64,000 nucleotides of DNA from an uncultured bacterium (GTDB taxonomy: Bacteria > Babelota > Babeliae > Babelales > Vermiphilaceae). The stretch spans positions 960,001 through 1,024,000 of the forward strand of contig OY969561.1 of the NCBI GenBank assembly GCA_963701085.1. The letters run 5' to 3'. The translations under genes and the position numbers were made by a program. Below, one piece after another: positions 16,083-40,473 of this stretch; position 1 is the first letter of the stretch, and every line of letters begins with the position of its first letter. The notes under the pieces were generated by a model. That model did no database searches, was not told the origin of the DNA, and saw nothing but the letters and a program-made list of their open reading frames with translations.

Positions 16083-17368
16083 ATGAAAGTATCAATAAAG
16101 AAACTGGAAAAATCAATCCCGAAGCTGACCGGCGTCTATCTTTTTAAAGACGCAGAGGATACTTTTATCTATATTGGCAAGGCGAAAAACTTGCATCACC
16201 GCGTCAATTCCTACTTCCAAAAATACAACACAGACTGGAAAATCAAGCAACTTATTGATGGATATGCTGATATAGACTATATTCTTACTCCAACGGAAAC
16301 AGAAAGCTTGCTCCTGGAGGCTGAATTGGTACAAAAATATAAGCCAAAATTCAATGTGCTTCTCAAAGAAGGTCAACCCTTTCTTTATATCCTTTATTTA
16401 CTCCTACTGAAACTCCCAACCATAGAGCTTGTTCGCAATAAAAAGAAAAAAGGAACCTATTTTGGTCCCTTTCTGCAAAAAAGTCCTGCCCGCAAAACAT
16501 TCCACTTTTTAATGCAGACCTTCAACCTGAAGCTCTGTAATAAAAAAATAGAACTGGGATGCCTTGACTACCACATTGGCAACTGCGCGGGCAACTGCAA
16601 ACCAAATTTTGATCTTACTGATTACTGCTTCCGGATTACTCTTGCACGAGAAGCATTAAAAAATAATCAGGATGGTTTTATACAAAACATTAAAGATCAA
16701 ATGAAAAAATACAGTACAGAATTTGCTTTTGAAAAAGCACAACGCTTGCATGAATATTTGCAAAATGTTGATACCATTTTTAACACACTCAACACACATT
16801 TCAGCGCAGATAAATTTGCAACTGATATCTTTGTTGCAAGCACACCAACGTCCCTACTTCGCCAGACGAAAAAAACAGTATCAATACTGAACTGCAAAAA
16901 TTTTTGGGCTTTGCCCTCCCGGTGCGCACCATTGACTGTTTTGACATTTCACATTTTCAAAGCAGTTATCTTGTTGGATCATGCGTGCGATTTACTGATG
17001 GGCAACCAGAGAAAAGTATGTTCCGTCATTTTAAAATTAAAACATTAACCGAACAAAATGATTATGCTGCTTTACAAGAAATTATAAGTAGACGTTATAA
17101 AAACAAAACAGATCTTCCTGATCTTATTGTTATTGATGGCGGCAAAGGGCAACTGAGTGCTGCATACCACGTATTACCTGATGCTCCGATTGTCAGCTTG
17201 GCCAAACGTGAAGAAACAATGTATGGTCCACAGTTTCCTGATGGTATTATCCTTGATATCAAAACTAATGTTGGAAAATTGCTCATTGCGCTCCGTGATT
17301 ATGCACATCATTTTGCGATTAGCTATCATCGATTAAAAAGAAAAAAAGGATTAACCTATTCAAAATAA
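16083..17368 (+). CDS. uvrC: Excinuclease UvrC (frameshift near 16870; no C-terminal HhH seen)
   Basis: GIY-YIG GVYLF..YIGKAKNL, Cys cluster, then CFDISH, NDYAAL, PDLIVIDGGKGQL, LRDYAHHFAISYHR. Confidence 0.88.
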
Positions 17369-17979: not shown

Positions 17980-19081
17980 CTAAAGGATGCGTGTTAAAGA
18001 AGGCTTTGGAACTACTGCTTGCTCACCTGATAAAGAACTTGTAAGAGATGATTCACTTGATGAAGAGCTCGTGAGGTCTTGAGATTTACTTTCTATACCC
18101 ATAGTATATTTTTTAGTAATGATATGATTATTACAACAATCTTTCTTTTTATCAAAATCTTTCTTATTTTCTGCAAAATACTTATTCAACATAAAATAAC
18201 AACAGCGAGCTTTTGCTGAATTTTCTGGGCGTACAGAATCTAAGGTTGTATCTTGTGTAAATGTTCTAAATTTATTGAATGCAAGCTTATAAACGGTCAA
18301 TTTATCACTATTTTCCGCCTCTTTTGATATATAATTTTTCTTCATAAGTTTATATAACTCATCAGCATCATGTTGATCTACAATAATATGAGCCAACGTA
18401 TTACCTCTTAGCGTCTACTATTTTTTGATACATATCAGACAACCCACTAGAACTATTAGATTGATCTTGATTTAAAAAGGGAGTTAATAACTCTTCTTCA
18501 ATGATAAATTGCGTGTTCTGTGCTCTATGTTGTAGTTGTAGCATTATCATTTTTTCCAAATAAGACTCTTTACATGAGTTAAAAATAGTATTTGTTTTAT
18601 AATGCTCAATAATAGATTTCAGTATAGCATACGCAGTGTCTCTTTTTTCTAGATCTATCCTTGGTGATAATTGTTCAGCGCAAAATGTAACAAAATCAGC
18701 ACATTCTTTTTCTGAATGATATTTTATATTTCCTTTTGCTATAAGCCATAGCGTAATTGGTAAATCTATTTTTTTTATCGCATATTGAAAAAATCCATTT
18801 TGTTCATCATCTTTTGCCAAATGTATATAGTCAGCACTATTTTCACATCCGGTTATAAAAGAAATCACCTCAAGTATATTATTCATATCTTGAGGCGTAA
18901 ATTCATCACTTGTTTTATATTTTTCTAAACAATTTTTTAGCTGATTATTGCAATCATCATTAAGATATTTCTCTGTTTCTTTATAATCTATACTACTATC
19001 TTGTTGAGGTTGTTCCATGCAATACAACGTAACATGAGTGATAAAGAAACAGAGAAATAATATTACTGGTACATTCTTCAT
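17980..19081 (-). CDS. Secreted ankyrin-like repeat protein; frameshift near 18400
   Basis: Two ORFs together align with 19198-20205 (LSDMYQKIVD / GNTLAHII, CCYFML). Confidence 0.7.
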
Positions 19082-19197
19082 TTGGTGCCTTTTTTTTAAT
19101 GAAAAGATAAAAAATAGTTGGCTTATTTTAACAATTTAGAATGAAAAAACAAGCATTAGCTCATCTATAGGCACCAAATAATGATGTGTTTATTTTT

Positions 19198-20205
19198 TTA
19201 AATAATATGTTTATCACAACATTGTTTAAAATCTGTGTTGTTATCCTGCTTTCTTTGAAAATTCAAGAGCATAAAATAACAACATTTCTTTCTACTATCT
19301 TCCTGAGAAACTGTTGAAATAGTAAAATCTTTGCTGGGAGCACATTGCTCAAAAAGCCTGTGTGCTACCTCAAGAAAGATTTTTTGTGCTAACGCAAGAG
19401 GATTTAATGTGTCTTTATTTTTTGCAAATGTAATGTAATTTTTTCCTATAAAAGTATACAACATATCAGACAAGTGGCGTGATACAAGCATATGAGTGAA
19501 TGTATTCTCTTCTGCGTCCCGTATTTCCTGATAAATTTCTGATAACACAATAGGCTTTTCTATAAGGTCTTGTTGCGATACTACACCTTGTCCTGAAAAA
19601 TATTTTGATGCATCCTCTTTTATAAAATTAGTACCATGCTTTATATGCTCAAACTCTAATGTCACTATTTTCTTTAAAAAACATCTTCGATGATTATAGT
19701 TAAAACCAACCTTGTCATAGCCAGCAATTAATTTAGTAAATATCTTATAAGATTCCTCTCTATTGCCTTCCTCTGCATTCGGCATTAATTGATCAATACA
19801 AAGATCAATGGGTTCTTTACCAGCATTATTTGGCATACTCAATGAATATTTCATACAATCAATCACCCATTCTGTCATTTTTAAATCTCTATGTTTTACT
19901 ACAATGTGTGCAAAAGTATTCCCTTCTGCATCATATACATCTCTATGTAAACACTTACTGAGAAAAGATAAATTTTCCTTGTTTGTCATCTTAGCATAGG
20001 TATTCTTTATGTTCTGCATATCATCATAGCTAAAAGATTCTTTTTTATATTCCGTTAAACGATTACCTAAATATTTTTTAAAATCATTTTTTATTATTTC
20101 TTTAGCATCTCCATCACTCTCATAATTAAAAGCTGTATCAAACTCCATAGAATGCAGTGTAACACTACTCAAAAGTAAGCAAGAAAGTAATTGTATATTC
20201 TTCAT
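19198..20205 (-). CDS. Secreted ankyrin-like repeat protein
   Basis: Signal ...LHS-ME; DAEGNTFAH, NNAGKEPIDL, ENTFTH, NKDTLNPLALA. Confidence 0.75.
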   Translation of the reverse strand: MKNIQLLSCLLLSSVTLHSMEFDTAFNYESDGDAKEIIKNDFKKYLGNRLTEYKKESFSYDDMQNIKNTYAKMTNKENLSFLSKCLHRDVYDAEGNTFAHIVVKHRDLKMTEWVIDCMKYSLSMPNNAGKEPIDLCIDQLMPNAEEGNREESYKIFTKLIAGYDKVGFNYNHRRCFLKKIVTLEFEHIKHGTNFIKEDASKYFSGQGVVSQQDLIEKPIVLSEIYQEIRDAEENTFTHMLVSRHLSDMLYTFIGKNYITFAKNKDTLNPLALAQKIFLEVAHRLFEQCAPSKDFTISTVSQEDSRKKCCYFMLLNFQRKQDNNTDFKQCCDKHII

Positions 20206-20305
20206 ATGAACCCTTTTTTAATAAGAAGGTGAAAAACAGTTGGCCCATCCTAAATAATTTAAAGTTTAAAAAACAAGTAATTTTTTTTAACAAAATGAGT
20301 TGTTT

Positions 20306-20923
20306 CTAAAACAGTGACTCTTCAGCATTAAACTTAAGCCAAAAGAGCAATTTTCCTATATAATTTTTTAACTCTTTTGATATCTCTAACGCAAAATATG
20401 CATAACAGATGGGATATATTTCCTTTATGATGGATGGTGCGCATTCTTTAAATTTTGTAAAAAATACCACTTCCCTGTCTTGTGCTGTTGGCTTAAAATC
20501 ATAGCTCAATAATGTTTGTATACACTCTTTTTTTACTGCAAAGGGTGCCGTTGCCATTGTTATTATACCCAAAGCAGAACATTCTTTTATTCGTTCATTA
20601 CAATAAAGTTGTATATAAAATTCCCCTTTCTGCATAAGCCCTCTCTCAAAATCATCATAAGTTTTTGCAGTATAAATAGAATACAAAAAAAGAGATGCTG
20701 CTGGAGACCATCCTCTGACAACATGCCCATTATGACGCTCATATAGCTCATTTTTTATTGTTAATATAACATTTTCGCATTTTAATTTTTTAACGAACAA
20801 AGACTCAGAAATTTGTTTTAAGTCGGATTTTTTCTTCAGCACTACCATTTCCATACATCCTGTTATAGTGGAAAATAAAAAGAATAGTAACACCATCAAA
20901 AAATGAGTTTTTTTATGTATCAT
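20306..20923 (-). CDS. Hypothetical secreted protein
   Basis: Signal ...TGC-ME; C-terminal ISKELKNYIGKLL. Confidence 0.6.
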   Translation of the reverse strand: MIHKKTHFLMVLLFFLFSTITGCMEMVVLKKKSDLKQISESLFVKKLKCENVILTIKNELYERHNGHVVRGWSPAASLFLYSIYTAKTYDDFERGLMQKGEFYIQLYCNERIKECSALGIITMATAPFAVKKECIQTLLSYDFKPTAQDREVVFFTKFKECAPSIIKEIYPICYAYFALEISKELKNYIGKLLFWLKFNAEESLF

Positions 20924-21015
20924 ATTGAGATTCCTCTTTTATTAATAAACTCTAGCTCTTATAAAAAACTTCATGGTAGTATCAGGAAAATTATTCCCTA
21001 CTATCAAGGAAACCT

Positions 21016-21930
21016 ATGCTCCGTAAACATACCATCAATAAAAAATTTTTCCTCATAATAATAACTACACTTTTTTTCACCAACATAATCGCCAAAAATT
21101 TACCTATCGTGCTTGTTCATGGAATATTTTCGGATGAATATACCATGGTTCCTGCAGAAAAACATATCCAAGAATATCTTCCTGATGTATACGTTAAAAA
21201 TATCAGGCTTGGTGAAGGAAGAATAACATCACTCTTTAACATGCATGATCAAGTTGAATGGCTCAAACAAGAAATGGAAGCTGATGAACAACTGCAAGAT
21301 GGTTGCATAATAGTTGCACATTCTCAAGGCGGTCTTGTTGCCCGTTACTTTATTGAAAAATACAACAACCCGCGTGTGTATATCTATATTGCATGGGGAA
21401 CTCCTCAAGCAGGAATATTTGGAGCACCAGACAAAATTGATACGTATATTCCATGGTTAAAAATATTACAACAAATTTCTTATAAATTTGCATACTCCTC
21501 ATTAATGCAACGACTTATCAGCTTTGCCGGCTACTGGAAACATCCTTTGCATTATGAAAAATATTTACAAGGCTGCACCTTCTTACCCTTTGTAAACAAT
21601 GAAATAGATCATGCGGATGCCGCATTATTTAAAGAGAACATCTGCAATCTTGCATGCATGGTACTTGTGCTATCAACACAAGATGAAGTTGTTGTTCCTG
21701 TTTCATCATGTCATTTTGGATTTCATCCAATAGGATTCCCACAAGAAATTGAAGATCTCTTTGATTCTCAATGGTACAATGATGATGCCCTGGGACTCAA
21801 AACACTTGCTGAAAGTGGTCGATTACACCTCAAATTTGCTCACTGTCCTCATTCAGAATTACAATCAGACGAGTACAACTTTGTAGAAAACACATTGCCT
21901 TATTTAATATATGAGGTGCCAGTAACATAA
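21016..21930 (+). CDS. Palmitoyl-protein thioesterase (PPT1/PPT2-like alpha/beta hydrolase), signal peptide
   Basis: LPIVLVHG, HSQGG nucleophile, YWKHP, FLPFVNNE, QDEVVVP..S.HFGF, Y..DALGLK.L..SGRL, C-terminal His; colinear with eukaryotic PPT1. Confidence 0.85.
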   Translation: MLRKHTINKKFFLIIITTLFFTNIIAKNLPIVLVHGIFSDEYTMVPAEKHIQEYLPDVYVKNIRLGEGRITSLFNMHDQVEWLKQEMEADEQLQDGCIIVAHSQGGLVARYFIEKYNNPRVYIYIAWGTPQAGIFGAPDKIDTYIPWLKILQQISYKFAYSSLMQRLISFAGYWKHPLHYEKYLQGCTFLPFVNNEIDHADAALFKENICNLACMVLVLSTQDEVVVPVSSCHFGFHPIGFPQEIEDLFDSQWYNDDALGLKTLAESGRLHLKFAHCPHSELQSDEYNFVENTLPYLIYEVPVT

Positions 21931-21957: not shown

Positions 21958-22031
21958 GCGCTCGTCCTGAACTTGTTGAAGGATGTCCTCGAGCGCTCGA
22001 AGACATCCTTCAACAAGTTCAGGACGAGCGC
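21958..22031. repeat. Near-perfect 74-bp palindromic REP-like element
   Basis: gcgctcgtcctgaacttgttgaaggatgtc...gacatccttcaacaagttcaggacgagcgc. Confidence 0.9.
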
Positions 22032-22080
22032 GATAAGATATTTTAAAAAAAATTTAATGAATATTTCTATAGGAATTACT

Positions 22081-22830
22081 ATGCCCTACCTCTATGTAGC
22101 CAACTGGAAAATGAATCTCTCTTTTACTCAAAGCATCAACTTCTGCAAAAATAATCTTGATGCATTACAACAATTATCAAGTGACACCACTGATATTGTG
22201 CTCTGCCCTTCTTTTATTGCACTTGCACCAATTGCTGAAATTTTTAAAAATCATTCTATTGCCATTGGCGCACAAGATTGTTCAGAACATGAATCTGGAG
22301 CCTATACGGGCGAAGTTTCTGCTGTATCACTTGCAGAAATTGGTATCAAATATTGCATAGTTGGCCACAGCGAACGACGCATGTACCATCATGAAACGAC
22401 TGAAAAAATTGTTAAAAAAATAAAACTTTTGTATGCAGACACTATTATACCCATTATCTGTATTGGTGAAGCACAAGAATATTTTGAATATAAAAAAACA
22501 TATACCATACTAACTGAGCAACTAGAACCAATACTTACTACAATAGCTCAGCAACAGGAACACTCAAAACATCTTATTATCGCCTATGAACCCATCTGGT
22601 CAATTGGCACTGGTATTATTCCAACGCCACAACAACTTACTGCTGTATGTGCATGGATTACGGAGCACATAAAACTGCACCTACCTGACCATACCATGCA
22701 ACTTCTGTATGGGGGCAGCGTTAATCAAAACAATATCGCAACATTAAAAAAAATACCGCCAATCAATGGTTTTTTGATTGGCGGTGCAAGTACTGATTTT
22801 GAGCAGTTTAAAAAAATAATTACCTTATAA
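22081..22830 (+). CDS. tpiA: Triosephosphate isomerase
   Basis: ANWKMN, GHSERR, AYEPIWSIGTG, YGGSV, GFLIGGAS; start moved to 22081 because 21973 lies inside the repeat. Confidence 0.95.
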   Translation: MPYLYVANWKMNLSFTQSINFCKNNLDALQQLSSDTTDIVLCPSFIALAPIAEIFKNHSIAIGAQDCSEHESGAYTGEVSAVSLAEIGIKYCIVGHSERRMYHHETTEKIVKKIKLLYADTIIPIICIGEAQEYFEYKKTYTILTEQLEPILTTIAQQQEHSKHLIIAYEPIWSIGTGIIPTPQQLTAVCAWITEHIKLHLPDHTMQLLYGGSVNQNNIATLKKIPPINGFLIGGASTDFEQFKKIITL

Positions 22831-23919
22831 ATCTTTTTTTATTAATTGACCAATACGATTACCAATAATTCTCTCAAGATTCTTTCGTGGAAAACCTTCA
22901 ATAGCTTTAAACGCTTTTGAATCTGATAAATTAACCAATTCAGCAACCCTTATGTAACTATTATCAAAAGCTTTTTGGCAAAGGTATGATGCTACTTCTG
23001 GTCTTTTGAATAACACTATCGCTTTACGATTATGAGCAACGTCTATCGGAAAAAATTCTGAATCAATAGGCATATAAGAATTAGTTACCATAGCACAATA
23101 ATTATCATGCTTATCACTAACTCTATACCTCTCTTCAAATATGCAAGAATAACCTCCTAGTAAAGCATTATTCTTATGTTCATAATCAACATAGTTATGC
23201 CCATTAACCCATTCTATACTTTCAATTTGTAGAGAATTGATTATCTCCCCTGTTTTCATATCCCATATTGAATGAATATTATTATCATCAGTTGCTCGCA
23301 AATATTTACCATTAGCAGACATACCTAAAGAAGATGGTTCTATATTTCCATGAGGACCATATAAAACAGTAAAATGTATATCCGATAACAACGTTGGCAT
23401 AATAGCTGTTAATTTCTTATTAATGTCCTTACCAAAAAATAATTTAGAAGCACCATTAGAAGCAATTCTTTGTGCGCCATTGTCATCACTATCAACATGC
23501 AACTCATCATCATACAGCTTATCGATAGTAAGACCTGTGATATCGTCTAATTCCTCAGTCTTTTTATACACCAAAGCCTGCATTAAATAATTCACGTACC
23601 AATGCTGCGCAACAAGCTTTTGCAATACACTCTTTTTATCCATATCTTTTGTAATATAGGACTCTATCTTATTCATCTCATCTGTAGCTTTTTGATACGT
23701 TAACAATTTATTTTTATACCAACTTACACATACACCAATCAATTTCCTAAAACAGACATCCTCATTAATTCCTAAATGATCTCTATCAATTATATCACGA
23801 ATATCCGCCGCATATATATCAGAATTAAGCTTGTTAACATCTTCATATTTCATTGCAAACAAACAAAAAGAGTTAAGCATTACAATATACAAAAAAGAAC
23901 GTTGTAGTCTTACCATCAA
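22825..23919 (-). CDS. Hypothetical secreted protein with a WD40-like segment
   Basis: Signal ...LFA-MK; SANGKYL...IWDMKTGE. Confidence 0.6.
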   Translation of the reverse strand: MMVRLQRSFLYIVMLNSFCLFAMKYEDVNKLNSDIYAADIRDIIDRDHLGINEDVCFRKLIGVCVSWYKNKLLTYQKATDEMNKIESYITKDMDKKSVLQKLVAQHWYVNYLMQALVYKKTEELDDITGLTIDKLYDDELHVDSDDNGAQRIASNGASKLFFGKDINKKLTAIMPTLLSDIHFTVLYGPHGNIEPSSLGMSANGKYLRATDDNNIHSIWDMKTGEIINSLQIESIEWVNGHNYVDYEHKNNALLGGYSCIFEERYRVSDKHDNYCAMVTNSYMPIDSEFFPIDVAHNRKAIVLFKRPEVASYLCQKAFDNSYIRVAELVNLSDSKAFKAIEGFPRKNLERIIGNRIGQLIKKDL

Positions 23920-23943
23920 AATATCCTTGAAAAAATTAATAAG

Positions 23944-24756
23944 TTAATCCACTTTTTCTTTTCCAACATCAACAATACTACTTTCCATTTCTGTCAATGA
24001 GATAAAATCCTTTGCTCTAAACCCATGTCGCTGATCTTCTTCTTCATCTGTTTCTCTTAAATAATCATTAATTTTTGAGCTCAAACCAAGATAACAACCC
24101 AACGGTATTAAAAGTGGAATAGGTATACATTCACTGGGAGGATTCAACATAAACCAAAGATAACATTGTAAAAAACAGCAACTATACATTCCGCAACATG
24201 CCACATTATGTCTTACATGGTCTTTATTATCCCATAAAGCATTCATGAAAACATCTTTCATATCCGATGGTTGTCCATAACATACATTGCGCGTCATACT
24301 TGTACCATATTTTTCAGCAATTTTTTGTCTTACCTTCAGCGGCAAACCTATAACACGTTCTGCCATTTTATGTGCAAAATATCTATCTCCCCCTTCTATT
24401 CTCAATTTTTCACTATTTTTTACCGTTTTCAATACATACCATAATGTTTGTTTATTCTCTTCATTTAAAAACGAAATATCACAAACACTCTCAAAAATTT
24501 TACTATATTTTGTTGTTATTTTTTGTTCAGATATTTTTACATTATTATTGTTTTTTTCAGACAAAAAATAGGGATATGCTCGGTCATCCTTTTTACCAAA
24601 ACAACAGAGACTTTTTTCATCTCTTCTCTTATATTCCCAATCTTGCTCTATCTGTCCAACTTGTTCCATAGCCTGCAGAGAAAAAGAATAGCTTAACAAC
24701 ATTACATTGAACGTAAAAAGATATAAAAAAGATTGCTTAATACATTTCACCATCAA
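23944..24756 (-). CDS. Hypothetical secreted protein with C-terminal TM hairpin (distant paralog of next two)
   Basis: SLQA-ME; QTLWYVL, LPLKVRQKIAEKYG shared with 24896 and 25876 proteins. Confidence 0.7.
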   Translation of the reverse strand: MMVKCIKQSFLYLFTFNVMLLSYSFSLQAMEQVGQIEQDWEYKRRDEKSLCCFGKKDDRAYPYFLSEKNNNNVKISEQKITTKYSKIFESVCDISFLNEENKQTLWYVLKTVKNSEKLRIEGGDRYFAHKMAERVIGLPLKVRQKIAEKYGTSMTRNVCYGQPSDMKDVFMNALWDNKDHVRHNVACCGMYSCCFLQCYLWFMLNPPSECIPIPLLIPLGCYLGLSSKINDYLRETDEEEDQRHGFRAKDFISLTEMESSIVDVGKEKVD

Positions 24757-24895
24757 AAACTCCTTTGGAAAAAATTAAAATGTTATCATTTTATAGCATA
24801 GGTATTGGAAAAAGTCATCGTTAAAAACACAAAAATCCAACAGATTGTTGGATTCTTAACCATGCTCTCAATGGACTTTTTTTTATCAAATACTT

Positions 24896-25801
24896 CTATT
24901 TTTGAACAATCTCATATTCCATTTCTTGCAACAAAGGAATTTTCACTAACTCAGTTCGATATTTTTTGTCTTCAGGTGTTTCATATAACCAATAAAGAAC
25001 ACTTTTTTTCAGACCAAAATAAAACAATATAGTTGTCACCACCATAGTTGTCACCTCTGAAAAATCTGGTACTGGCCCACCACCTAAAATCTCCCATAAA
25101 ATAGCTTGAGGTGGAATTGAAAGAAGAGATGCCATGCTTGCCGAGGAATATGCAAAAAAATTCTTAGCCTCTTCATCATCCAAGCTCCACCTAGCCCCGC
25201 ATATTGGTTGATTATGTAGACTACTTTCCATTGTTTCACCATACTTTTGAACAATTTTTTTTCTTATTGATAAAGGCAAATTCAAAATATTTTGAGACAT
25301 TTTTTGTGAGAAATCTTTATCTAATCCTTCTATTATGATCCGCTCTCTACCTTCTACATCATGCAACACATACCATAATCCTTGTTTCTGTTCTTTTTTT
25401 AAATACAAAATATCAAATGTAGTAAGATTAAAAACTTGTTGGCTTTCCTGTATTAATAGTTCATCAGGCGAAATCATTTCTGCATAACCTGCATAACAAT
25501 ACTCTAATATTTTATTTGTTACATCGCGTGGAATGCCTACATCTTGCATTGTTTTTGCCCAAAGCAATTCATCACAAAAAGAACGCTTTAATTGATCCCT
25601 ATCTTTTTTGGGTATAAAATATGGATATTGAGGCCTATTTCCTCCAGAAATGATTTTATCCAAACAACCTGTACGATATTCCCAATCCCCATAAACTTCC
25701 ATATCCTGCATTTCTTTTGGATCCCTCGCCCTTTTCATCGCTTGTAAAGAAATGGAAATAGTCACCAAGCCTATTATTAAAAAATTAACATGATGCATCA
25801 T
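24896..25801 (-). CDS. Hypothetical secreted protein, tandem duplicate A
   Basis: SLQA-MK; GIPRDVTNKILEY; highly similar to 25876-26784. Confidence 0.75.
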   Translation of the reverse strand: MMHHVNFLIIGLVTISISLQAMKRARDPKEMQDMEVYGDWEYRTGCLDKIISGGNRPQYPYFIPKKDRDQLKRSFCDELLWAKTMQDVGIPRDVTNKILEYCYAGYAEMISPDELLIQESQQVFNLTTFDILYLKKEQKQGLWYVLHDVEGRERIIIEGLDKDFSQKMSQNILNLPLSIRKKIVQKYGETMESSLHNQPICGARWSLDDEEAKNFFAYSSASMASLLSIPPQAILWEILGGGPVPDFSEVTTMVVTTILFYFGLKKSVLYWLYETPEDKKYRTELVKIPLLQEMEYEIVQK

Positions 25802-25875
25802 AAAAAACCTTACATCCTAAACTGTTGCATATAATGTAAAATGTTCCCAATGGACTTTTTTTTTATCAAATACTT

Positions 25876-26784
25876 CTATTTTTGAACAATCTCACATTCC
25901 ATTTCTTGCAACAAAGGAATTTTCACTAAATTAGTTCGATATCTTTTTTCTTCAGGTGTTTCATATAACCAATACAGAATACTTTTGTTCAGGCAACAAT
26001 AAAACAATATAATTGCAGAACAACGTTGTTCTGCCCCAAAACCTAAAGCATCCCATAAACAACTTTGAAGTGGAATTGAAAAAAAAGATACCGCTTTTGC
26101 CAAGCAAGATGCAAAAGAAGCCTTATTTTCTTCATCATCCAAGCACCCCCTAGCCCCGAATCTTGGCGTATTATGTAGACTACTCTCCATTGTTTTACCA
26201 TACTTATGAACAATTTTTTTTCTTATTGATAAAGGCAAACTCAAAATATTTTGAGACATTTTTTGTGAAAAATCTTTATCTAATCCTTCTATTGTAATCT
26301 GATTTCTATCCCCTACATCATGCAACACATACCATAATGCTTGTTTCTGCTCTTTTTTTAAACACAAAACATCAAGTGTAGTAAGATTAAAAACTTGTTG
26401 GCTTTTCTGTATTAATGGTTCATTAGACAAAATCATTTCTACATAACAATACTCTAGTATTTTATTTGTTACATCGCGTGGAATACCTACATCTTGCATT
26501 TTTTTTGCCAAAAGCAATTCATTGCAAAAAGAACGCTTTGATTGATCCCTATCTTTTTCGGGTACAAAATATGGATATCGAGGCCTATTTCTTCCAACAG
26601 TAAATTGATCCAAAACACCTGTATGATATTCCCAATCCCCATAAGATAGTCTTCTTGCTTCTATAGCCAGCATTTCTTCTCTCGTTCTTTTCATCGCTTG
26701 CAAAGAAGTGGAAATAGTCACTAAGCCTATTATTAAAAAATTAACATGTTGCATCATAAAGAACCTCAAAAATATAGTAACCAT
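25876..26784 (-). CDS. Hypothetical secreted protein, tandem duplicate B
   Basis: Long identical stretches with A; likely start at MMQHVNF. Confidence 0.75.
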   Translation of the reverse strand: MVTIFLRFFMMQHVNFLIIGLVTISTSLQAMKRTREEMLAIEARRLSYGDWEYHTGVLDQFTVGRNRPRYPYFVPEKDRDQSKRSFCNELLLAKKMQDVGIPRDVTNKILEYCYVEMILSNEPLIQKSQQVFNLTTLDVLCLKKEQKQALWYVLHDVGDRNQITIEGLDKDFSQKMSQNILSLPLSIRKKIVHKYGKTMESSLHNTPRFGARGCLDDEENKASFASCLAKAVSFFSIPLQSCLWDALGFGAEQRCSAIILFYCCLNKSILYWLYETPEEKRYRTNLVKIPLLQEMECEIVQK

Positions 26785-27325: not shown

Positions 27326-27649
27326 ATGTTATACGGACTCTTACTAACACTGTACCTCACTAATTGCTTTTTTCTCGTCCTCATTATTCTCATGCAAAAA
27401 GGAAAAAGTGGCTTAGGCTTGGGCGGCCTTGGTGGCGGTGCTCAAATGCTTTTTGGTGGTAGCGGCGGACAAGATCTTTTTCAAAAAATTACCTGGGTGC
27501 TTGGTACAATTTTTATATCTGGTGCAATGTTACTTTCTCTCATGAAATCATCAGAACATAAAAAATTCAGATATCTTGCTTCTAACAAAACAATAACTCA
27601 GCAAGTTGCTCAACAAAATACGCCTACATCAACAGAAGAGTCTGAATAA
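27326..27649 (+). CDS. secG: Preprotein translocase subunit SecG
   Basis: ILMQKGKSGLG..GG..LFGGSG..LFQKITW. Confidence 0.9.
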   Translation: MLYGLLLTLYLTNCFFLVLIILMQKGKSGLGLGGLGGGAQMLFGGSGGQDLFQKITWVLGTIFISGAMLLSLMKSSEHKKFRYLASNKTITQQVAQQNTPTSTEESE

Positions 27650-27687
27650 AAAACTACAATCTTTGTTAATGAAAAAAAAGGTGTCGA

Positions 27688-28467
27688 GTGATAATTCACT
27701 TTATTAATTTTTTGGGTAGATTCACCTTGGACATATGTGCTTCAACGGGTCAATTTACCCTTTTTCTTGTGGAAGCAGTAAAAACATCTGTTACCTCAAA
27801 ACTCAAGGTTTCCAAAACATTTGCCCAAATGAATCGTATTGGTGTTGAGTCTCTCAGCATTGTCCTTTTGACCGGTTTATTCACCGGGATGGTTCTTGCT
27901 CTCCAAACATACATTGGCTTTCAGCGTGTTGGTGGAGAGCAGTTTATTGGCGCAATCGTAGCGCTGGGACTTATTCGCGAACTTGGGCCAGTTTTAACCG
28001 CTCTGATGGTAACAGGCCGTGCAGGATCAGCTATTACCGCTGAAATTGGCACCATGATAATTACTGAACAAGTTGATGCATTAACAACACTGCGCATTAA
28101 TGTGTTTCAATATTTAGTTGTACCACGCATCATTGCAAGCACATTTATTTTGCCGTTTCTAACACTTTTTTCTATGTTTTTTGGCATCATAGGCGGCTAC
28201 ATAGTATGCGTGCATGTATTGGAATTAAGCCCAGAAGATTATGAAAGTAGCATTCGCAACTATGTTGAATTGGCCGATATAAAAGGTGGTCTTAAAAAAG
28301 CCGCTGTATTTGGTTTAATTCTTTCATGGGTTGGCACCTACAAAGGAATGTATACCCATGGTGGTGCGCGTGGCGTTGGTATTGCAACCACACAAAGCGT
28401 TGTTGCTAGTTCAATATTAATTTTAATCACCAACTACTTCTTAACCAAACTCCTTGAACATCTCTAA
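27688..28467 (+). CDS. mlaE: MlaE family ABC permease
   Basis: RELGPVLTALMVTGRAGSAITAEIGTM..TEQVDAL; GGARGVGIATT. Confidence 0.92.
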   Translation: MIIHFINFLGRFTLDICASTGQFTLFLVEAVKTSVTSKLKVSKTFAQMNRIGVESLSIVLLTGLFTGMVLALQTYIGFQRVGGEQFIGAIVALGLIRELGPVLTALMVTGRAGSAITAEIGTMIITEQVDALTTLRINVFQYLVVPRIIASTFILPFLTLFSMFFGIIGGYIVCVHVLELSPEDYESSIRNYVELADIKGGLKKAAVFGLILSWVGTYKGMYTHGGARGVGIATTQSVVASSILILITNYFLTKLLEHL

Positions 28468-28481
28468 AAAAGAACTTCGCC

Positions 28482-29277
28482 ATGAAAAAAGAGAACTCCA
28501 GCAAAACCAAAATTAAAATTATCGATTTACAAAAAGAATTTGAGGGCCATTGGGTTACTCGAGGAGTCAATCTCGATATCCCTGAAGGATTAATGACGGT
28601 GATCATTGGTCGATCAGGCGAAGGTAAATCAGTATTACTCAAGCAAGTTATTGGGCTCATTAAGCCAACATCAGGAACTATTATTGTTGATGGCATGGAT
28701 ATCACCAAACTGTCTGGTGATGAATTAAATGAATGCTACAAAAAATTTGGCTATGTATTCCAGTTTGCAGCACTTCTTGATTCACTTCAATGTTTTTGAA
28801 AATATTGGCATAACGCTTATTGAACAAGGCATATCACATGCGCAAATTTTGCCTATTGTTAAAGAAAAATTAAAATTAGTACAATTATCAGAAGACACCT
28901 TAGAAAAATATCCCTCAGAACTATCTGGTGGTATGAGAAAACGTGTTGGATTAGCGCGCACACTAGTCGCTAATCCTGAAATTATTTTATACGACGAACC
29001 TACAACCGGCCTTGACCCTATCACTTCTCGCGTTATTCACGAACTCATGTTTGATATGCAAAAACGTCTCAAAATAACCTCTGTTATTATTTCTCATGAT
29101 GTGGAAACATTTAAATATGCAGATAAAGTTGCGCTGCTGCATGATGGAGAAATTAGATATTTTGGTGATGCAAAAACAATATGGGAATCAGATAATCCAT
29201 ATATCTATCAATTTATCCGTGGATTAACTGAGGGTCCCATTACTAAAGAAATTACTTATTTTAAAGATAAAGAGTAG
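28482..29277 (+). CDS. mlaF: MlaF family ABC ATPase (frameshift near 28790)
   Basis: [41 protein letters not shown]. Confidence 0.88.
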
Positions 29278-29300: not shown

Positions 29301-30236
29301 TTACTGTCTAATTTTACCACCATGCTTTTCAAACAAACTAATGATGGCAGTAAGTGTGTCTTTTTCATAAGACATTACGTGATCACGATCTAATCTTTTG
29401 CATGCTGAACTAAGAGGAGTATCTCCATTCTCATTTGTCGCATTAATTAATTCAGGAGCAGCTTTAAGTAATAACTTACCAATTCTTACATAATCAACAC
29501 TGCTTACTGAATAGCTCCATCCACAACAAACAAGCTTATGCAATACACAATCCCCAGTTAGAGTTTTTCTTTTTTTTGCATCAACATTGTGAGTCAGATA
29601 AAACTCTATCAATTCGGGCGAACAATGATGTAAGATAGTGTACCATAAAACATTTGGCTCATGATAGCCTTCTGCATTCACATCAACACGATCAATAAAC
29701 ATTTCTAATATATCAACATTTTTTATAACAAACCAATCTGGATCTTCATATAAACCTTGCTGATTTGGATTAGCATTATTCTCAAATAACGCAGCAATCA
29801 TCTCTTTATCTTTTCGATATATTGCTCGCTGAAGTAAAGAATCCCTGCTGCATACAGCATTATCAGCACCTGCATACACTAATAAGAATGCCGCACGGCG
29901 TTTATTCCAATACGTTATATCATTCATACTTTGTAACAATTTTTTCATAACTTTATTTTTTTCTGCAATATTGTAGTTTTTACAGAATTTACCGACCATA
30001 GCAGGTGATATCAGTTCATTAAAATGCTTGCAGGTAGTGCTTAACGCTAAAGTAGTTTTAACAGTATCTTCTAAGAATTTTCCATTACAGATAATTGGTA
30101 TTACCATCTCATGAGGCAAGTCTGGCAATGTAAGTGTCCTTTCCATGCCAGATATATGCATAGAAGTCATTAAAAAAGTCATTGCTAATAATGCAGTAAC
30201 AGTAATAGTCTTGCTCGTCATGTAAAAATCTTTCAT
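29301..30236 (-). CDS. Secreted ankyrin-repeat protein with N-terminal F-box-like motif
   Basis: Signal ...ISG-ME; LPDLPHEMVIPII...LSTTCKHFN; ankyrin motifs NANPN, VDVNA, GDCVLH, NENGDTPL. Confidence 0.8.
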   Translation of the reverse strand: MKDFYMTSKTITVTALLAMTFLMTSMHISGMERTLTLPDLPHEMVIPIICNGKFLEDTVKTTLALSTTCKHFNELISPAMVGKFCKNYNIAEKNKVMKKLLQSMNDITYWNKRRAAFLLVYAGADNAVCSRDSLLQRAIYRKDKEMIAALFENNANPNQQGLYEDPDWFVIKNVDILEMFIDRVDVNAEGYHEPNVLWYTILHHCSPELIEFYLTHNVDAKKRKTLTGDCVLHKLVCCGWSYSVSSVDYVRIGKLLLKAAPELINATNENGDTPLSSACKRLDRDHVMSYEKDTLTAIISLFEKHGGKIRQ

Positions 30237-33225: not shown

Positions 33226-35770
33226 ATGAATAAATATAGCGTTAATTTTTGTTTTGTTTTTATGCTTGCCTCCGTTATGTGCACAACAGAAACGGGAAGC
33301 AGAAAACGTTATCGCAATAAAAAACAGGCTTCAACTAAAAATGTTAACACGCATATGAATGTTGAAGCTTATCAACCTCAAACCAACAACACTCCCTCCT
33401 TCGCCACTGCGCCAGGCACGGCATCCCTGAAAACAAAAGCTCCAGCAGGTACTACTGGTATGCCTCAAATTCAACAAAAAATAGAAAAATCTGCTCATCA
33501 ATACAGTGATCCTCTTGTTGAGCCTCAAATCCCAGCCACTGAAAATAAAGCGACCAAGCCAGTAGAAATGCCTATTTCTGTTAATGAAGATGAAGATGAA
33601 GACAGTATAGAACTTAATTTTGAAAATGCCGGTCTTGAGAATTTTGCTAAACAGATCGAAGACATATTTGAAATAACCTTAATTAGCGATGATGCTCTTT
33701 CTCCACTACCACAAGGTAAGAAGGCTATAAAAAGCAATAAAATATCATTTAAAACAAATCAGCCTCTTTCCAAAAAAGAAACGTGGAATCTTTTTGTTAC
33801 ATTTCTTGATATAGCTGGTTTTGCTGTTATTCCTCAAGCCGATCCAAAAGTTTTCCATATCACCACCATAGAAGCTGCACGCAAATCACCACTACCTACA
33901 TTTATTGGTGTTGATCCAACAACATTGCCTGATACCGATGAACTAATTCGCTATGTTTATTTCTTGGAAAATGCATCCACAGAAACTATCATGGGAATTG
34001 TCGGACCGCTCAGAAGCAGTAGTTCACAAGGCCTTATTGAACTAAAAGAGCATAAAGGATTTATCCTTACCGATAAGTCTTATAACATCAAAATGCTTAT
34101 GTCTATTGTTAAAGAACTTGATAAGGTGAGCATTCCTGAATCAATGTCCATTCTTAAATTGCGTAATGCTGATGCAAAACAAGTACAAGACCTCTACAAA
34201 GAATTACTCCCTAAAGAAGAGCAAACATCACGATTCTTTACAAAAAAACAACCAACATCTCTCTTTTTCCCTGAAAACACTCGCATTATTGCTGACCCTC
34301 GCACTAACACACTTATTTTACTCGGGCCTACAAATTCAATTCAAAAAATTGAACAGTTCATTATGAAATATATTGATGTTGAACTTGATCAAGCATACTC
34401 TCCGTTGTATACCTATCAACTTAAATATGCTGATGCAGCAACAATTGCCGATATCATGACCAAGGTAACATCATTCGGTCAAGAGACAGATGCAGGCAAA
34501 TATGGTGGTGTTCGTGGCACTGATCAATACATGAGGCCAATGGTATTCATTCCAGAAAAAGAAACCAATCGGCTTATCATCAAAGGACATTACGAAGATT
34601 ATCTCAAAGCACAAAAAGTGATTGCTCAACTTGATGAAAAGCAACCGCAAGCTGCGATTGAAGTTCTGATTGTCACTGTTGATCTTACTGATACAAAAAG
34701 TCTTGGTGCTCAAATCAGAAGCAAACAACCAGGACCAAACGGGCTCCTTGGTAACAATATTAAATTCCAGACATCAGGACTTTATGGAACTCCAGGATAG
34801 TCACCAATCCTAACCCTTCAACGGGAACGGAAAGATTGCTCGGTAATCTTGTCAACCTTGTTACCGGCGCTATTCCTGGAACATCATTATTAACACTTGG
34901 TCAAGATGCTTTTGGTGTATGGGGCATTTTCGAAGCACTGCAAACCATTACTGATGCTGAAGTTGTATCAAATCCATTTATTCTTGCAACTAACAATGCC
35001 AAAGCAACCGTTGCAATTGGTGAAGAACGCCGTATCGCAACATCTCTTGTTGTTGCAGGACGGCACCAACCAAAAGGGATTTGATGCCGATGATGCAAAA
35101 CTGGAAGTTACCATCACTCCTCAAATTAATTCTGATGGCATGATTGGTCTTGCTATAAATATTACCATCAATGAATTCACCACGTCTGCTACTACCAATC
35201 CAAATGATGCTACCCAAAACACCAGAATCATCAACACGAATGCTATTGTTGCTAACAAAGAAGTTCTTGCTCTTGGCGGTCTCATTAGAGATAATATACA
35301 AAACATAGAAAGCAAGGTACCTATACTCGGTGATATTCCTATTCTTGGCTGGTTCTTTAAAAATAAACAAAAAACAGTTATCAAACAAAGCCTTCTTGTT
35401 CTTATCTCAACACGCATCATAGAATCTCATAAAGGCGAAGAAATGAAATCATTCACCCGTGACCATATTGATGATTACCAAAACACTATCAATGATATGG
35501 AATACGTATTCTGCAAACGTGATCCTATTGATCATGCATTCTTCAAAGATAAAAATTTACGTGCAGAAGGAGCTGTTGAAGGTCTTATTTTTGAACGTCA
35601 TCAAAAGAGAACAGGAACCTGAAAAAATATTCAGCCAGACACAATTCAGCCAGAGCCCGACACAACAGATGAGAAACCAGAGCGCTACGCAATCAGCACA
35701 TAATAGCCTCATAGAGACTATACAAAGCAAAAAACGAACTCAGCTATCGCTGTCAGATTTTTTGACATGA
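33226..35770 (+). CDS. gspD: Type II secretion secretin GspD (copy 1), several frameshifts
   Basis: N0 ELNFENA, N-domains ADPRTNTLIL and LKYADA, secretin core LALGGLI..KVPILGDIPILGWFFK. Confidence 0.85.
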
Positions 35771-37994: not shown

Positions 37995-40473
37995 ATGAAA
38001 ATAATAAAAAATTATAAAACCTAAAAACTTTCTTTTTCTTTTCTCATAGCCTACCCTTCAACTAGTTGTGCACCGCATCAATACATGCTATCATGCAGCA
38101 TGAATGCAACAAACTGTAAACATTGTAACTTGAACAAGAATTTCCTGATTTCAGTTTTAACTATGAAAATGAAGATATTGTTACTATTATTAATCAGTTA
38201 GCTGCATTAAAAGATCTTAATGTCATTTTGCCACAAGGCGATATTCTTAATGCAAAAGTAACACTGCATATTGAAAAAAAAATCACTCTTACTCAAGCTT
38301 GGGATCTTCTTAATACACTGTTAGATATTGCTGGTTTTTTCATTATTCCACAAGGCTCCACTATCAGAATAGTCAGATCAGGCAAGGAAATATCACGTGA
38401 GCCAATGCCAACCTATATAGGGGTTCATCCTAATGATTTACCAAATAATGATCAACCAATTCGCTATCTTTACTATCTTGCTAATATAAAAATTTCTGAT
38501 CAACCAGAAAATGAATTGAATGGTATCTTAAAAGATATTTTACCTGAAAATGCTTTTTATAAGGGTGATTCGGTCACTAATGGTTTATTAATAATAGCAA
38601 AAGCAAATGACATTCGTGCTGCTATGAAAATTATTATAGAACTTGATCAAGTAAATTTTCAGGAAAAAATTGATATCATTACATTACGTCACACCTCTGC
38701 AAGTATTGTAGCTCAACTCATTAATGAACAACTCATTAAAACAGAAGCCACCAATCCGTATCGCCTTGATACAAAAAAAGCAAAAGAAATACCATATTTT
38801 TCTGGTTTCACCAAAATAATTCCTGAAGTTCGTCTCAACAAACTTATCATTCTTGGACGGCCTCAAGCGGTAGAACGATTAAAAGATTTTATTAAAAAAT
38901 ATATCGATGTTGCACCAGATTCAGGTAAATCAATTCTACACGTCTATCGATTACAATATCTCGATGCAAAAACACTTGCTCCTGTTCTTGAAAAAATAGT
39001 ACAAGGAGGTGGCAATGGCGGACCAAGCCAAGCAAGTGCAGGAGAAACAAAAACTGGCGGTATTGAACGTTTCTTTGATAAAGTAATCATTTATACTGAT
39101 AGCCCTCAAGACAGCGGTGCAGATAGTGCAAACACCTCTGACAAACAACAACAATATTTTACTATTATGGTGGCAATAATTTAGTTATTGCTGCCCGTAA
39201 TGATGACTGGAAACAGATAAAAAAACTGATTGAAGAATTAGACACTCCACAAAGACAGGTACTTATTGAAGTGTTAGTAGCAGATTTAACGGTTGAAGAC
39301 TCACGCTTGCTCGGCTCTATGACACGTGTTCCTGACAAAGTACCTCTTCCTGATGATATTCAATTTCAGTCAGCAATGCTTGCTCCAGCACTACCAATTC
39401 CACTACCAGCTGCTCCACCTGCCCCTGGACCTACAACAACTATTCAATCTGATCTTTTAGCAAATGCTTATACTAACTCCAACGGCTCACCCGTTCTTGC
39501 TAATCCAACGAGTAGTGGCACAAACAACATCGCTGACTTTGCATCTACTGGTACTACATTGCTCTCATTAAATGATAATGATGGTAATACTTGGAGTATC
39601 TGGGAACTTCTGCAATTGTTTACGAGCACAAAAATACTATCGCATCCTCATGTTATGGCACGAAACAATAAAGAAGCGGTTGTTTCTATCGGTCAAACAC
39701 GGTGGCTTGTGGATAAAGTAAAAGATATCTCTAGCGTTAACTATGGTGGTGCAACAACAATTCAATATAAACCAATTGCTGCTAACCTTACCGTAAAAAT
39801 TACACCACGCATTAGCAGCGCAAGCACCGTTAATCTGCAAGTCCTTGTTGAAATTGATGAATTTATCTCAAATACTACCAATACGACTAATAATACTAAA
39901 AACATCAGAAGACTAGAAACCAACGCAAACATAAAAAGTGGTGGTATTTTTGCTCTTGGAGGACTGATCAGAACAACAAGTACATCTAGTGTTAAAGAAA
40001 CTCCATTCTTAGGAAAAATTCCGATAATTGGATGGTTCTTTAAAAGCAAAAGTAATGATGTTCTCAAAAATAACTTAACCGTTTTTATCTCTCCAACTAT
40101 TATTGAACCTCGACTCCGCGATGGAGCAAATGAATATACGCAAGATTATATTAATATTGCAAAGAATGAATCTCGTGGAAACCTCTTTGATTCCCTCACG
40201 GATCCTATTACACGCTGGTTCTTTGCTGGAGAAGAAGTTGATGCGGAAAAAGCGATAGATAAATTTGTTGCAAAGGATGAAACACTGCCACAAAATGATA
40301 TTACCCGTAAAAAAAATAATCCCCCGAAATCAAAATCTCGGCAAAATCGTGAGGACAGCACGGATATACTAACCCATACAGCTGAAGGCTTTGTTGCAGA
40401 AAATAGCAATTATCACCTGCCAGATTTAAAAAAAATAATCGCCGATGATCCAAATCCCTTCTTAAAAGCGTAG
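37995..40473 (+). CDS. gspD: Type II secretion secretin GspD (copy 2), several frameshifts
   Basis: FNYENEDIV N0, repeated N domains, QVLIEVLV, ILSHPHV, LGGLI..PFLGKIPIIGWFFK, VFISPTII. Confidence 0.85.

Follow-up and report, generated by a model that had tools for sequence, protein, structure and literature searches.

Does the chromosome of a bacterium encode a genuine palmitoyl-protein thioesterase (PPT), and if so, what might the enzyme do there and where did its gene come from? The question is raised by an open reading frame (ORF) on contig OY969561.1 of assembly GCA_963701085.1, within a stretch of 64,000 nucleotides that was analysed as a whole and is referred to here as the window. The ORF, at 21016-21930 on the forward strand, is intact, begins with ATG and encodes a protein of 304 amino acids (aa). 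The genome belongs to the Dependentiae (Babeliales) and consists of a single contig of 1,198,634 bp that is 92.6% complete by marker genes. It carries one copy of the PPT family domain, PF02089. The product of the ORF is a member of the PPT family and represents a new, uncharacterised bacterial branch of it.

A full-length member of the PPT family

The Pfam profile PF02089 (Palm_thioest) matches the 304-aa protein with an E-value of 3e-56 and 191.4 bits against a cut-off of 26.8, and the match is full length, with residues 30-277 covering positions 1-252 of the 254 in the model. The remaining α/β-hydrolase families in Pfam match at E 1e-5 or weaker. The secondary matches, all weak, are DUF676, PGAP1, LCAT and Lipase_2, the last at E 0.17, and no lipase-family profile gives a significant match. 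No NCBIfam model was assigned to the protein, EstV reaching E 0.052 and 13 bits against a cut-off of 300.

A sequence search of the PDB gave strong matches to PPT2 and PPT1 only. Human PPT2 (1pja) aligns over residues 27-277 with E 2.8e-28 and 102 bits, and PPT1 aligns over residues 29-297 (3gro, E 2e-23; 1eh5, E 6e-22; 86 bits). Both alignments are colinear, beginning at residues 27-29 and ending at 277-297. The closest lipase chain lies at E 0.0088, and PDB lipases span 0.0088-0.8.

The predicted structure tells the same story. An AlphaFold2 model built from 74 sequences has a mean predicted local distance difference test (pLDDT) score of 91.2 and a predicted template modelling score (pTM) of 0.88. 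In Foldseek comparisons, it superposes on PPT1 with bound palmitate (1eh5_A) at a TMt of 0.90 and a root-mean-square deviation of 2.0 Å over 281 columns, on the PPT1 structures overall at TMt 0.86-0.90 and on human PPT2 (1pja) at TMt 0.91 with 27% identity. All non-PPT folds score a TM of about 0.5 and 0.6 at most. As modelled, the protein has the α/β hydrolase core together with the whole of the PPT-specific cap, which forms the acyl groove.

Bacterial lipases (1qge/1cvl/1tah, Lipase_2, EstV) share the α/β hydrolase core and have a nucleophile elbow near the same position. However, the family I.2 lipases of Burkholderia and Pseudomonas differ from the 304-aa protein in that their sequence similarity is marginal and the TM is about 0.5. 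A reading made earlier from the sequence alone had described the protein as colinear with PPT1 and PPT2 from end to end and had named grouping with widespread bacterial lipases, together with a lack of thioesterase activity, as the outcome that would speak against it. The colinearity is borne out by the full-length PF02089 match and by the alignment with PPT2 and PPT1 over residues 27-297, and in the Pfam, PDB sequence and fold searches the gene stands apart from the bacterial lipases.

A Dependentiae branch distinct from PPT1 and PPT2

A HMMER search of 1.84 billion cluster representatives returned 1482 clusters at E ≤ 0.001, 68 of them at E ≤ 1e-30. Every close relative of the protein that carries a name is assigned to “Candidatus Babeliales” or “Candidatus Dependentiae”, and the Dependentiae clusters share at least 42% identity with it. 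The next named matches are eukaryotic. The closest named protein from outside the Dependentiae is a “PPT2” of Anaeramoeba flamelloides (P0127; 41% identity, E 3.6e-48, full length); a Dracoamoeba protein (P0131) shares 35% identity (E 1.4e-45, full length), and the nearest Atlas clusters are 74-100% Eukaryota. Further named PPT homologues come from a choanoflagellate, a dictyostelid, a plant, a fern, a rotifer, a hemichordate, a chytrid, a mucoromycote, Palpitomonas and Kipferlia.

A FastTree phylogeny was made from 479 rows, comprising the query, 19 locus ORFs and 459 of 489 stored proteins, the other 30 being dropped because they were shorter than 230 or longer than 450 aa. The query falls in a clade of 148 tips (support 98) that holds all 17 labelled core Dependentiae sequences and none of the 41 labelled eukaryotes. 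An IQ-TREE analysis (LG+C20 PMSF, 70 rows by 301 columns) used rows picked after the FastTree result, and the group labels of its unnamed rows are those of their FastTree position. Here, too, the core Dependentiae form a clade (97/94) whose rows group by genus code: the four g4 genomes come together, and the same-genus locus L009 clusters with the query.

The 304-aa protein is neither a PPT1 nor a PPT2 orthologue. In the IQ-TREE phylogeny it lies outside the PPT1 clade (P0479, plants, Circinella; 100/99) and outside the PPT2-type group (P0240 and others), which is on the eukaryote side of an 86/91 branch. It resembles PPT1 (human and bovine; 3gro, 1eh5) in being colinear over residues 29-297, but true PPT1 orthologues such as P0479 (E 3.6e-120 to 3gro) belong to a plant/animal/fungal clade far from the query. 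Like human PPT2, it has the cap and a leader at the N-terminus and carries the triad at the same positions, but it differs from PPT2 in its bacterial context, in lacking lysosomal targeting and in its A-x-S-x-G elbow. The PPT2-type eukaryote clade (Palpitomonas P0240, which matches 1pja at 1.3e-48, and Kipferlia P0157) is separate from the Dependentiae clade, and the better phmmer score to 1pja thus reflects similarity only and not PPT2 orthology. The PPT-like proteins of Anaeramoeba and Dracoamoeba likewise group with other eukaryotes (99/98) and not with the query. A second Cys after the catalytic His is present in most eukaryote rows of the alignment but missing in the Dependentiae rows. 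Of the features that set the lysosomal enzymes apart, the leader alone has a counterpart in the 304-aa protein, whose gene sits on a bacterial chromosome behind a Shine-Dalgarno-like motif.

Active site

The sequence-only reading had placed an intact Ser-Asp-His triad in the motifs HSQG, QDEVV and CPH. These were located at Ser103, Asp223 and His279 (Table 1), and on sequence evidence the triad does appear intact: the three residues fall in invariant or near-invariant triad columns in four alignments. Within the 148-member clade, the nucleophile Ser is present in 147 rows and the catalytic His in 146 of the 147 rows that have a residue at that column. The acid is Glu in 104 rows and Asp in 44, so that every row has one or the other. 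The retention of Ser, acid and His across the clade indicates selection on the active site, and the protein is predicted, from its family, fold and triad, to be catalytically competent. In the Dependentiae clade, a second acidic residue often adjoins the triad acid column.

N-terminal leader and putative export

The protein begins with MLRKHTINKKFFLIIITTLFFTNIIAKN, in which four Lys/Arg residues precede a hydrophobic stretch with a 13-residue Kyte-Doolittle maximum of 2.3. No lipobox Cys was found in the leader. AlphaFold2 places a helix at residues 3-22, with pLDDT values of 60-76. Of the clade members, 126 have complete N-termini, and 120 of these share a basic and hydrophobic leader; this, together with the hydropathy, is the ground for calling it a signal peptide. 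The signal peptide proposed earlier is therefore retained as a putative one, with a basic n-region followed by a hydrophobic core.

A profile search of the genome found two secretin genes and two T2SSE ATPases. TM6 genomes have been reported to carry two copies of gspD (PMC4776705), in agreement with the two secretins. No VirB4 was found in the same genome by profile search. In Chromulinavorax, signal peptides are described for 44% of the coding sequences, along with a Sec system and putative effectors that are secreted (PMC6561590). The 304-aa protein may thus be exported, either to the periplasm or, through the type II secretion parts, to the outside of the cell.

Distribution and descent in the Dependentiae

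PF02089 was sought at E ≤ 1e-10 in 261 Dependentiae genomes from 21 families and in 14 named control prokaryotes. With the genome studied here set aside, it was found in 11 of 79 genomes of its own family, coded f1, in 5 of 41 of family f8 and in none of the 141 genomes of the other 19 families. Two of the ten other genomes of the same genus carry the domain, and none of the 14 controls gives a match at this threshold. Relaxing the threshold to E ≤ 0.001 adds four Dependentiae genomes and 3 of the 14 controls, all with weak matches. The weak matches in f4, f5, f8 (G163) and f16 (E about 1e-4) are generic hydrolases (Hydrolase_4, PGAP1, Lipase_3) and were dropped. A single 9-residue pattern derived from alignment A3 led to three confirmed Babeliales loci out of eight pattern matches and is too insensitive to speak for absence elsewhere.

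Directly 3' of the PPT gene and on the same strand lies tpiA, which encodes triosephosphate isomerase. The same arrangement is found in 9 of 11 distinct core related loci (L003, L004, L005, L006, L007, which is the same as L014, L008, L009, L011 and L013); at the other two, L002 and L010, no tpiA was seen within flanks of 1.4 kb. The nine loci represent six genus codes (g1, g4, g23, g31, g33 and g39), L013 being from a named metagenome-assembled genome without a code. The tpiA-linked orthologues in other genera share 45-68% identity with the 304-aa protein. In four same-genus genomes without a PPT, tpiA is kept, and no remnant of the PPT gene was detected in about 1.5 kb of flanking sequence (tblastn E > 4).

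In one genome (G143), the tpiA-linked PPT gene at L007 is broken: residues 1-66 are encoded in one frame and residues 69-297 in another, with a frameshift near residues 66-69, and reading through it meets two TGA codons and one TAA. The same genome has a second PF02089 gene (L019), a very divergent one encoding 344 aa.

The 148-cluster clade, the PPT-tpiA synteny and the grouping of the tree by genus code all point to old vertical inheritance. The data fit a PPT gene that has long been resident in the Dependentiae, having been acquired once, at an early date, and then passed on vertically and lost repeatedly. Its donor would most probably have been a eukaryote, and since its entry the gene would have been inherited beside tpiA and lost in most lineages.

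Function

The role that we favour for the 304-aa protein, as yet tentatively, is fatty-acid scavenging from host acyl-thioesters. The enzyme would act outside the cytoplasm, in the periplasm or beyond the cell by way of type II secretion, and would cleave host long-chain fatty-acyl thioesters, which could be acyl-CoA or S-acylated peptides or proteins. Once released, the fatty acids would be activated again by a single AMP-binding acyl-activating enzyme and passed into phospholipid through acyl carrier protein (ACP) and a PlsC-type acyltransferase.

The enzyme complement of the genome is consistent with such a pathway. Ketoacyl synthase (PF00109), present in all 14 control genomes, was not found in it, while profile searches revealed one ACP, one PlsC-type acyltransferase and one AMP-binding acyl-activating enzyme of 521 aa. 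TM6 genomes are described as being without both fatty-acid synthesis and fatty-acid degradation, and it has been suggested that they may exploit host lipids by mechanisms that are unknown (PMC4776705). Babela is likewise described as being without fatty-acid synthesis (PMC4378268). The analysis establishes the family, fold, triad and leader of the protein, the distribution and synteny of its gene and the metabolic context; we infer the export, substrate and physiological role of the protein, as well as the direction in which its gene was transferred.

No terminator-like site was found on the plus strand between the PPT gene and tpiA, and co-transcription of the two is therefore possible, as far as the sequence allows one to say. 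Dihydroxyacetone phosphate (DHAP), the product of the tpiA enzyme, feeds the glycerol-phosphate backbone, and the pairing with tpiA is suggestive of a lipid-backbone link through DHAP.

A number of observations weigh against the scavenging role. A strong PF02089 match occurs in only 17 of the 261 Dependentiae genomes, the present one included, and in 2 of the 21 families; since the phylum as a whole is reported to be without fatty-acid synthesis, the enzyme is not a general route to host lipids. The elbow of the protein is A-H-S-Q-G-G, that is, A-x-S-x-G and not G-x-S-x-G. The residue that opens the elbow is Ala in 103 of the 148 clade rows, Gly in 20 and Val in 15, and in the eukaryote rows of the alignment it is mostly Gly. 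PPT1 and PPT2, where characterised, are enzymes of the lysosome that work at acid pH. Contact of the bacterial protein with acyl-CoA or S-acyl proteins is presumed, and what points to a crossing of the outer membrane is the presence of secretion genes. Finally, the PPT forms of 739 and 744 aa in family f8 carry C-terminal ankyrin repeats.

These last proteins bear on the main rival proposal, namely that the enzyme is a host-manipulation effector that is exported and strips S-palmitoyl anchors from host proteins, such as small GTPases and SNAREs, and thereby rewires trafficking. We consider this possible, if rather unlikely. Protein depalmitoylation is the founding activity of the PPT family, and 1eh5 is a structure of PPT1 with palmitate. 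The gene is situated in a block of leader-bearing ORFans without Pfam matches that is syntenic in L013, and the genome has parts of a type II secretion system. In Chromulinavorax, secreted ORFans have been discussed as candidate effectors (PMC6561590). However, the 304-aa protein has no targeting domain, its conserved partner gene is the housekeeping gene tpiA, and no system for injection into the host cytosol was found, although this refers to VirB4, type III secretion not having been searched for. Its sequence is also slightly nearer to PPT2 (102 bits) than to PPT1 (86 bits), and PPT2 is reportedly inactive on palmitoylated proteins.

The f8 paralogues also lend support to an effector role. 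They come from the same phylum and resemble the 304-aa protein in matching PF02089 (E 1e-29 to 1e-40), in having a leader and in keeping the Ser and Asp of the triad. They differ from it in sharing 23-30% identity and in a cap insertion of roughly 35-70 residues, and in the IQ-TREE phylogeny they form a long-branched clade of their own, apart from the core clade of the 304-aa protein. In G038, three f8 PPT genes form a tandem triplet encoding 399, 379 and 744 aa. The ankyrin-fused paralogues retain Ser, Asp and apparently His in the alignment, and the fusions suggest the targeting of host proteins rather than bulk scavenging, at least in f8. A broader version of the idea, for which we hold out somewhat less hope, would make all Dependentiae PPTs exported S-depalmitoylases of host membrane proteins, the single-domain and the f8 ankyrin-fused forms being two versions of the effector. 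Among the bacterial effectors described so far, we know of no depalmitoylase of the PPT family, and full-text literature searches found none.

A third proposal is that the protein is an envelope- or lipid-remodelling esterase, a periplasmic (lyso)phospholipase or lipase that acts on O-esters in host-derived lipids or in the lipids of the bacterium's own envelope. This appears improbable. In its favour are the weak secondary Pfam matches to DUF676, PGAP1, LCAT and Lipase_2 and the A-H-S-x-G elbow, which resembles that of Bacillus-type lipases. In addition, PF02089-matching proteins of ammonia-oxidising archaea have been annotated as putative triacylglycerol lipases (PMC13245735), and an Mla-type lipid transporter is encoded 5.4 kb away. 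However, the similarity to lipases is at least 20 orders of magnitude weaker than that to PPTs, the whole PPT cap is present in the model and superposes at a TM of 0.9, the mla genes are outside the PPT transcription unit, and mlaF is split.

The mla genes had also been cited in the sequence-only reading, which noted that mlaEF lies nearby and offered lipid scavenging as one use of the enzyme. The genes are indeed nearby (27326-29277), in a secG-mlaE-mlaF block 5.4 kb downstream of the PPT gene, with mlaE about 6 kb away, but tpiA and four ORFs on the opposite strand intervene, so that there is no PPT-mla operon link. Closeness alone is no evidence of a functional link either. Lipid scavenging itself gains support from the absence of ketoacyl synthase and the presence of ACP, the acyl-activating enzyme and the acyltransferase, but none from the proximity of mla.

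Origin and direction of transfer

A eukaryotic origin of the Dependentiae PPT is plausible and the more economical reading, and rests on distribution: the family is present in at least five eukaryotic lineages of supergroup level but, among the prokaryotes covered here, in only two families of one obligately host-dependent phylum. Its occurrence in prokaryotes other than the Dependentiae was gauged from the 14 named control genomes.

The relatives on the eukaryote side may include viruses. In the FastTree phylogeny, an unlabelled clade of 89 tips (U1) adjoins the eukaryotes. One member, P0323 (L021:10001-10795), is encoded on a 127-kb metagenome contig together with an NAD-dependent DNA ligase, an asparagine synthase, a dual-specificity phosphatase, a stand-alone Rpb1 domain-5 protein, two GT25 glycosyltransferases and a SNF2 helicase. 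A 41%-identical U1 relative (L023:615-1652) is on a 24-kb contig of 29% GC that also encodes a TBP-domain protein, a DEAH helicase, a core-2 branching enzyme and DUF5771. From their gene content, both of the two contigs examined probably belong to giant viruses of protists. A fold search of BFVD found no PPT-like viral structure (best TM 0.47-0.57), and a scan of IMG/VR viral contigs with P0197 found no relative.

The trees do not orient the transfer between eukaryotes and Dependentiae. The weak f4, f5, f8 and f16 hydrolases were judged too distant to serve as an outgroup, and the trees were made without outgroup rooting. In the IQ-TREE phylogeny, all labelled eukaryotes, the virus-like clade and P0183 are on one side of the 86/91 branch; on the other side, f8, L019 with P0177, the core clade and the P0153 group form a grade. 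The grade includes weak branches (53/22 and 60/80) and flagged long branches. In a quick tree of the same data, the core clade adjoins PPT1-type eukaryotes, with the PPT2-type outside (support 82). That backbone is not rejected by the approximately unbiased (AU) test (p 0.0897), for which the group was defined after the quick tree had been inspected.

The grade is an argument for a reverse or independent origin, in which the family would be ancestrally bacterial and have passed to eukaryotes later, or in which f1 and f8 would have acquired it separately. With midpoint rooting, the eukaryotes and the virus-like clade emerge from within the Dependentiae grade, and the f8 and core sequences are not one clade. 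We regard such an origin as quite unlikely: the backbone is weak at 53/22 and 60/80, the long f8 branches pull the midpoint root, the quick tree has a different backbone that the AU test does not reject (p 0.09), and the family is found in Opisthokonta, Amoebozoa, plants, Metamonada and Palpitomonas as against 2 of 21 Dependentiae families.

The eukaryote-type family name alone would suggest that the gene was captured recently from the present host or that eukaryotic DNA contaminates the assembly. This explanation has next to nothing in its favour, being opposed by the single 1.2-Mb contig, the Shine-Dalgarno motif, the lack of introns, a genome-like GC content (0.36 in the gene and 0.345 in the window), the orthologues of 45-68% identity in the tpiA context of other genera and a best eukaryote match of 41% identity. 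Synteny, identity and tree pattern together exclude a recent capture. The description of the gene as host-derived is plausible. The nearest outsiders are eukaryotic and the distribution agrees, but the protein nests within no sampled eukaryotic lineage, the transfer is not oriented and the capture was not a recent one.

Genomic neighbourhood

The features of the locus are listed in Table 1. The PPT gene is flanked by leader-bearing ORFs without Pfam matches at 17980-20923 and 22825-26784, all on the minus strand. Two of them, at 24896-25801 and 25876-26784, are evident paralogues, and five of the flanking Pfam-less ORFs have homologues in the same order at L013. The family of the ORF at 22825 is duplicated and rearranged around tpiA in the same-genus genomes without a PPT. 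The true start of tpiA is probably an internal ATG near 22057-22081.

The ABC ATPase that is probably mlaF is divided between two overlapping frames, which cover ABC_tran positions 2-74 and 58-137. Similarly, uvrC is split within 16083-17368, its GIY-YIG and RNase H-like domains being encoded, in that order, by consecutive ORFs. The split mlaF and uvrC genes are either real frameshift pseudogenes or the result of indel errors in the assembly.

Table 1. Positions of the PPT gene, its active-site codons and neighbouring features in the window, and of the f8 loci
Feature	Position	Strand	Basis
PPT-family (PF02089) serine hydrolase gene, 304 aa	21016..21930	+	ORF, Pfam, PDB matches, AlphaFold2 model
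Shine-Dalgarno-like AAGGA, 5 nt before ATG	21006..21010	+	read from sequence
Leader, residues 1-26, putative Sec signal peptide or signal anchor	21016..21093	+	hydropathy, sequence
Ser103 codon, nucleophile of A-H-S-Q-G-G	21322..21324	+	invariant in alignments A2, A3, A5 and A6
Asp223 codon, triad acid in QDEVV	21682..21684	+	aligned with the LNDSIV Asp of PPT1 (HMMER alignment)
His279 codon, triad base in HCPH	21850..21852	+	invariant in alignment A5
tpiA (triosephosphate isomerase)	21973..22830	+	PF00121, E 2e-74, from residue 42
secG	27326-27649		
mlaE	27688-28467		
ABC ATPase, probably mlaF, in two overlapping frames	28482-28799 and 28729-29277		
Ankyrin-repeat protein directly after the mla genes	29301-30236	-	
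Two secretin-domain genes	35062-35424 and 39622-40107		profile match
f8 PPT locus	L012:316-2532	-	PF02089
f8 PPT locus	L016:1720-8128	+	PF02089

Implications

Full-text searches found no paper that combines “palmitoyl protein thioesterase” with “Dependentiae” or with “giant virus”. The word “thioesterase” does not occur in the main text of three Dependentiae genome papers (PMC4776705, PMC4378268 and PMC6561590), whose supplementary gene tables may list the gene. Automatic annotation in JGI records already gives these proteins the name palmitoyl-protein thioesterase; in NCBI records they appear as hypothetical proteins. The value of the finding is moderate, as the JGI annotation already names the family and the gene is present in a minority of the phylum. 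Eukaryote-like enzymes are common in intracellular bacteria, which tempers the surprise.

Nevertheless, old branches of a family considered to be eukaryotic and lysosomal exist in a bacterial phylum that is parasitic on protists, and the family probably also has branches in giant viruses that infect protists. To judge from the ankyrin fusions, at least one lineage may have come to use the PPT fold against proteins of the host. The acquisition of host lipids by the Dependentiae has been described as mostly unknown (PMC4776705), and the PPT gene provides a concrete candidate for this process in intracellular bacteria that are fatty-acid auxotrophs.

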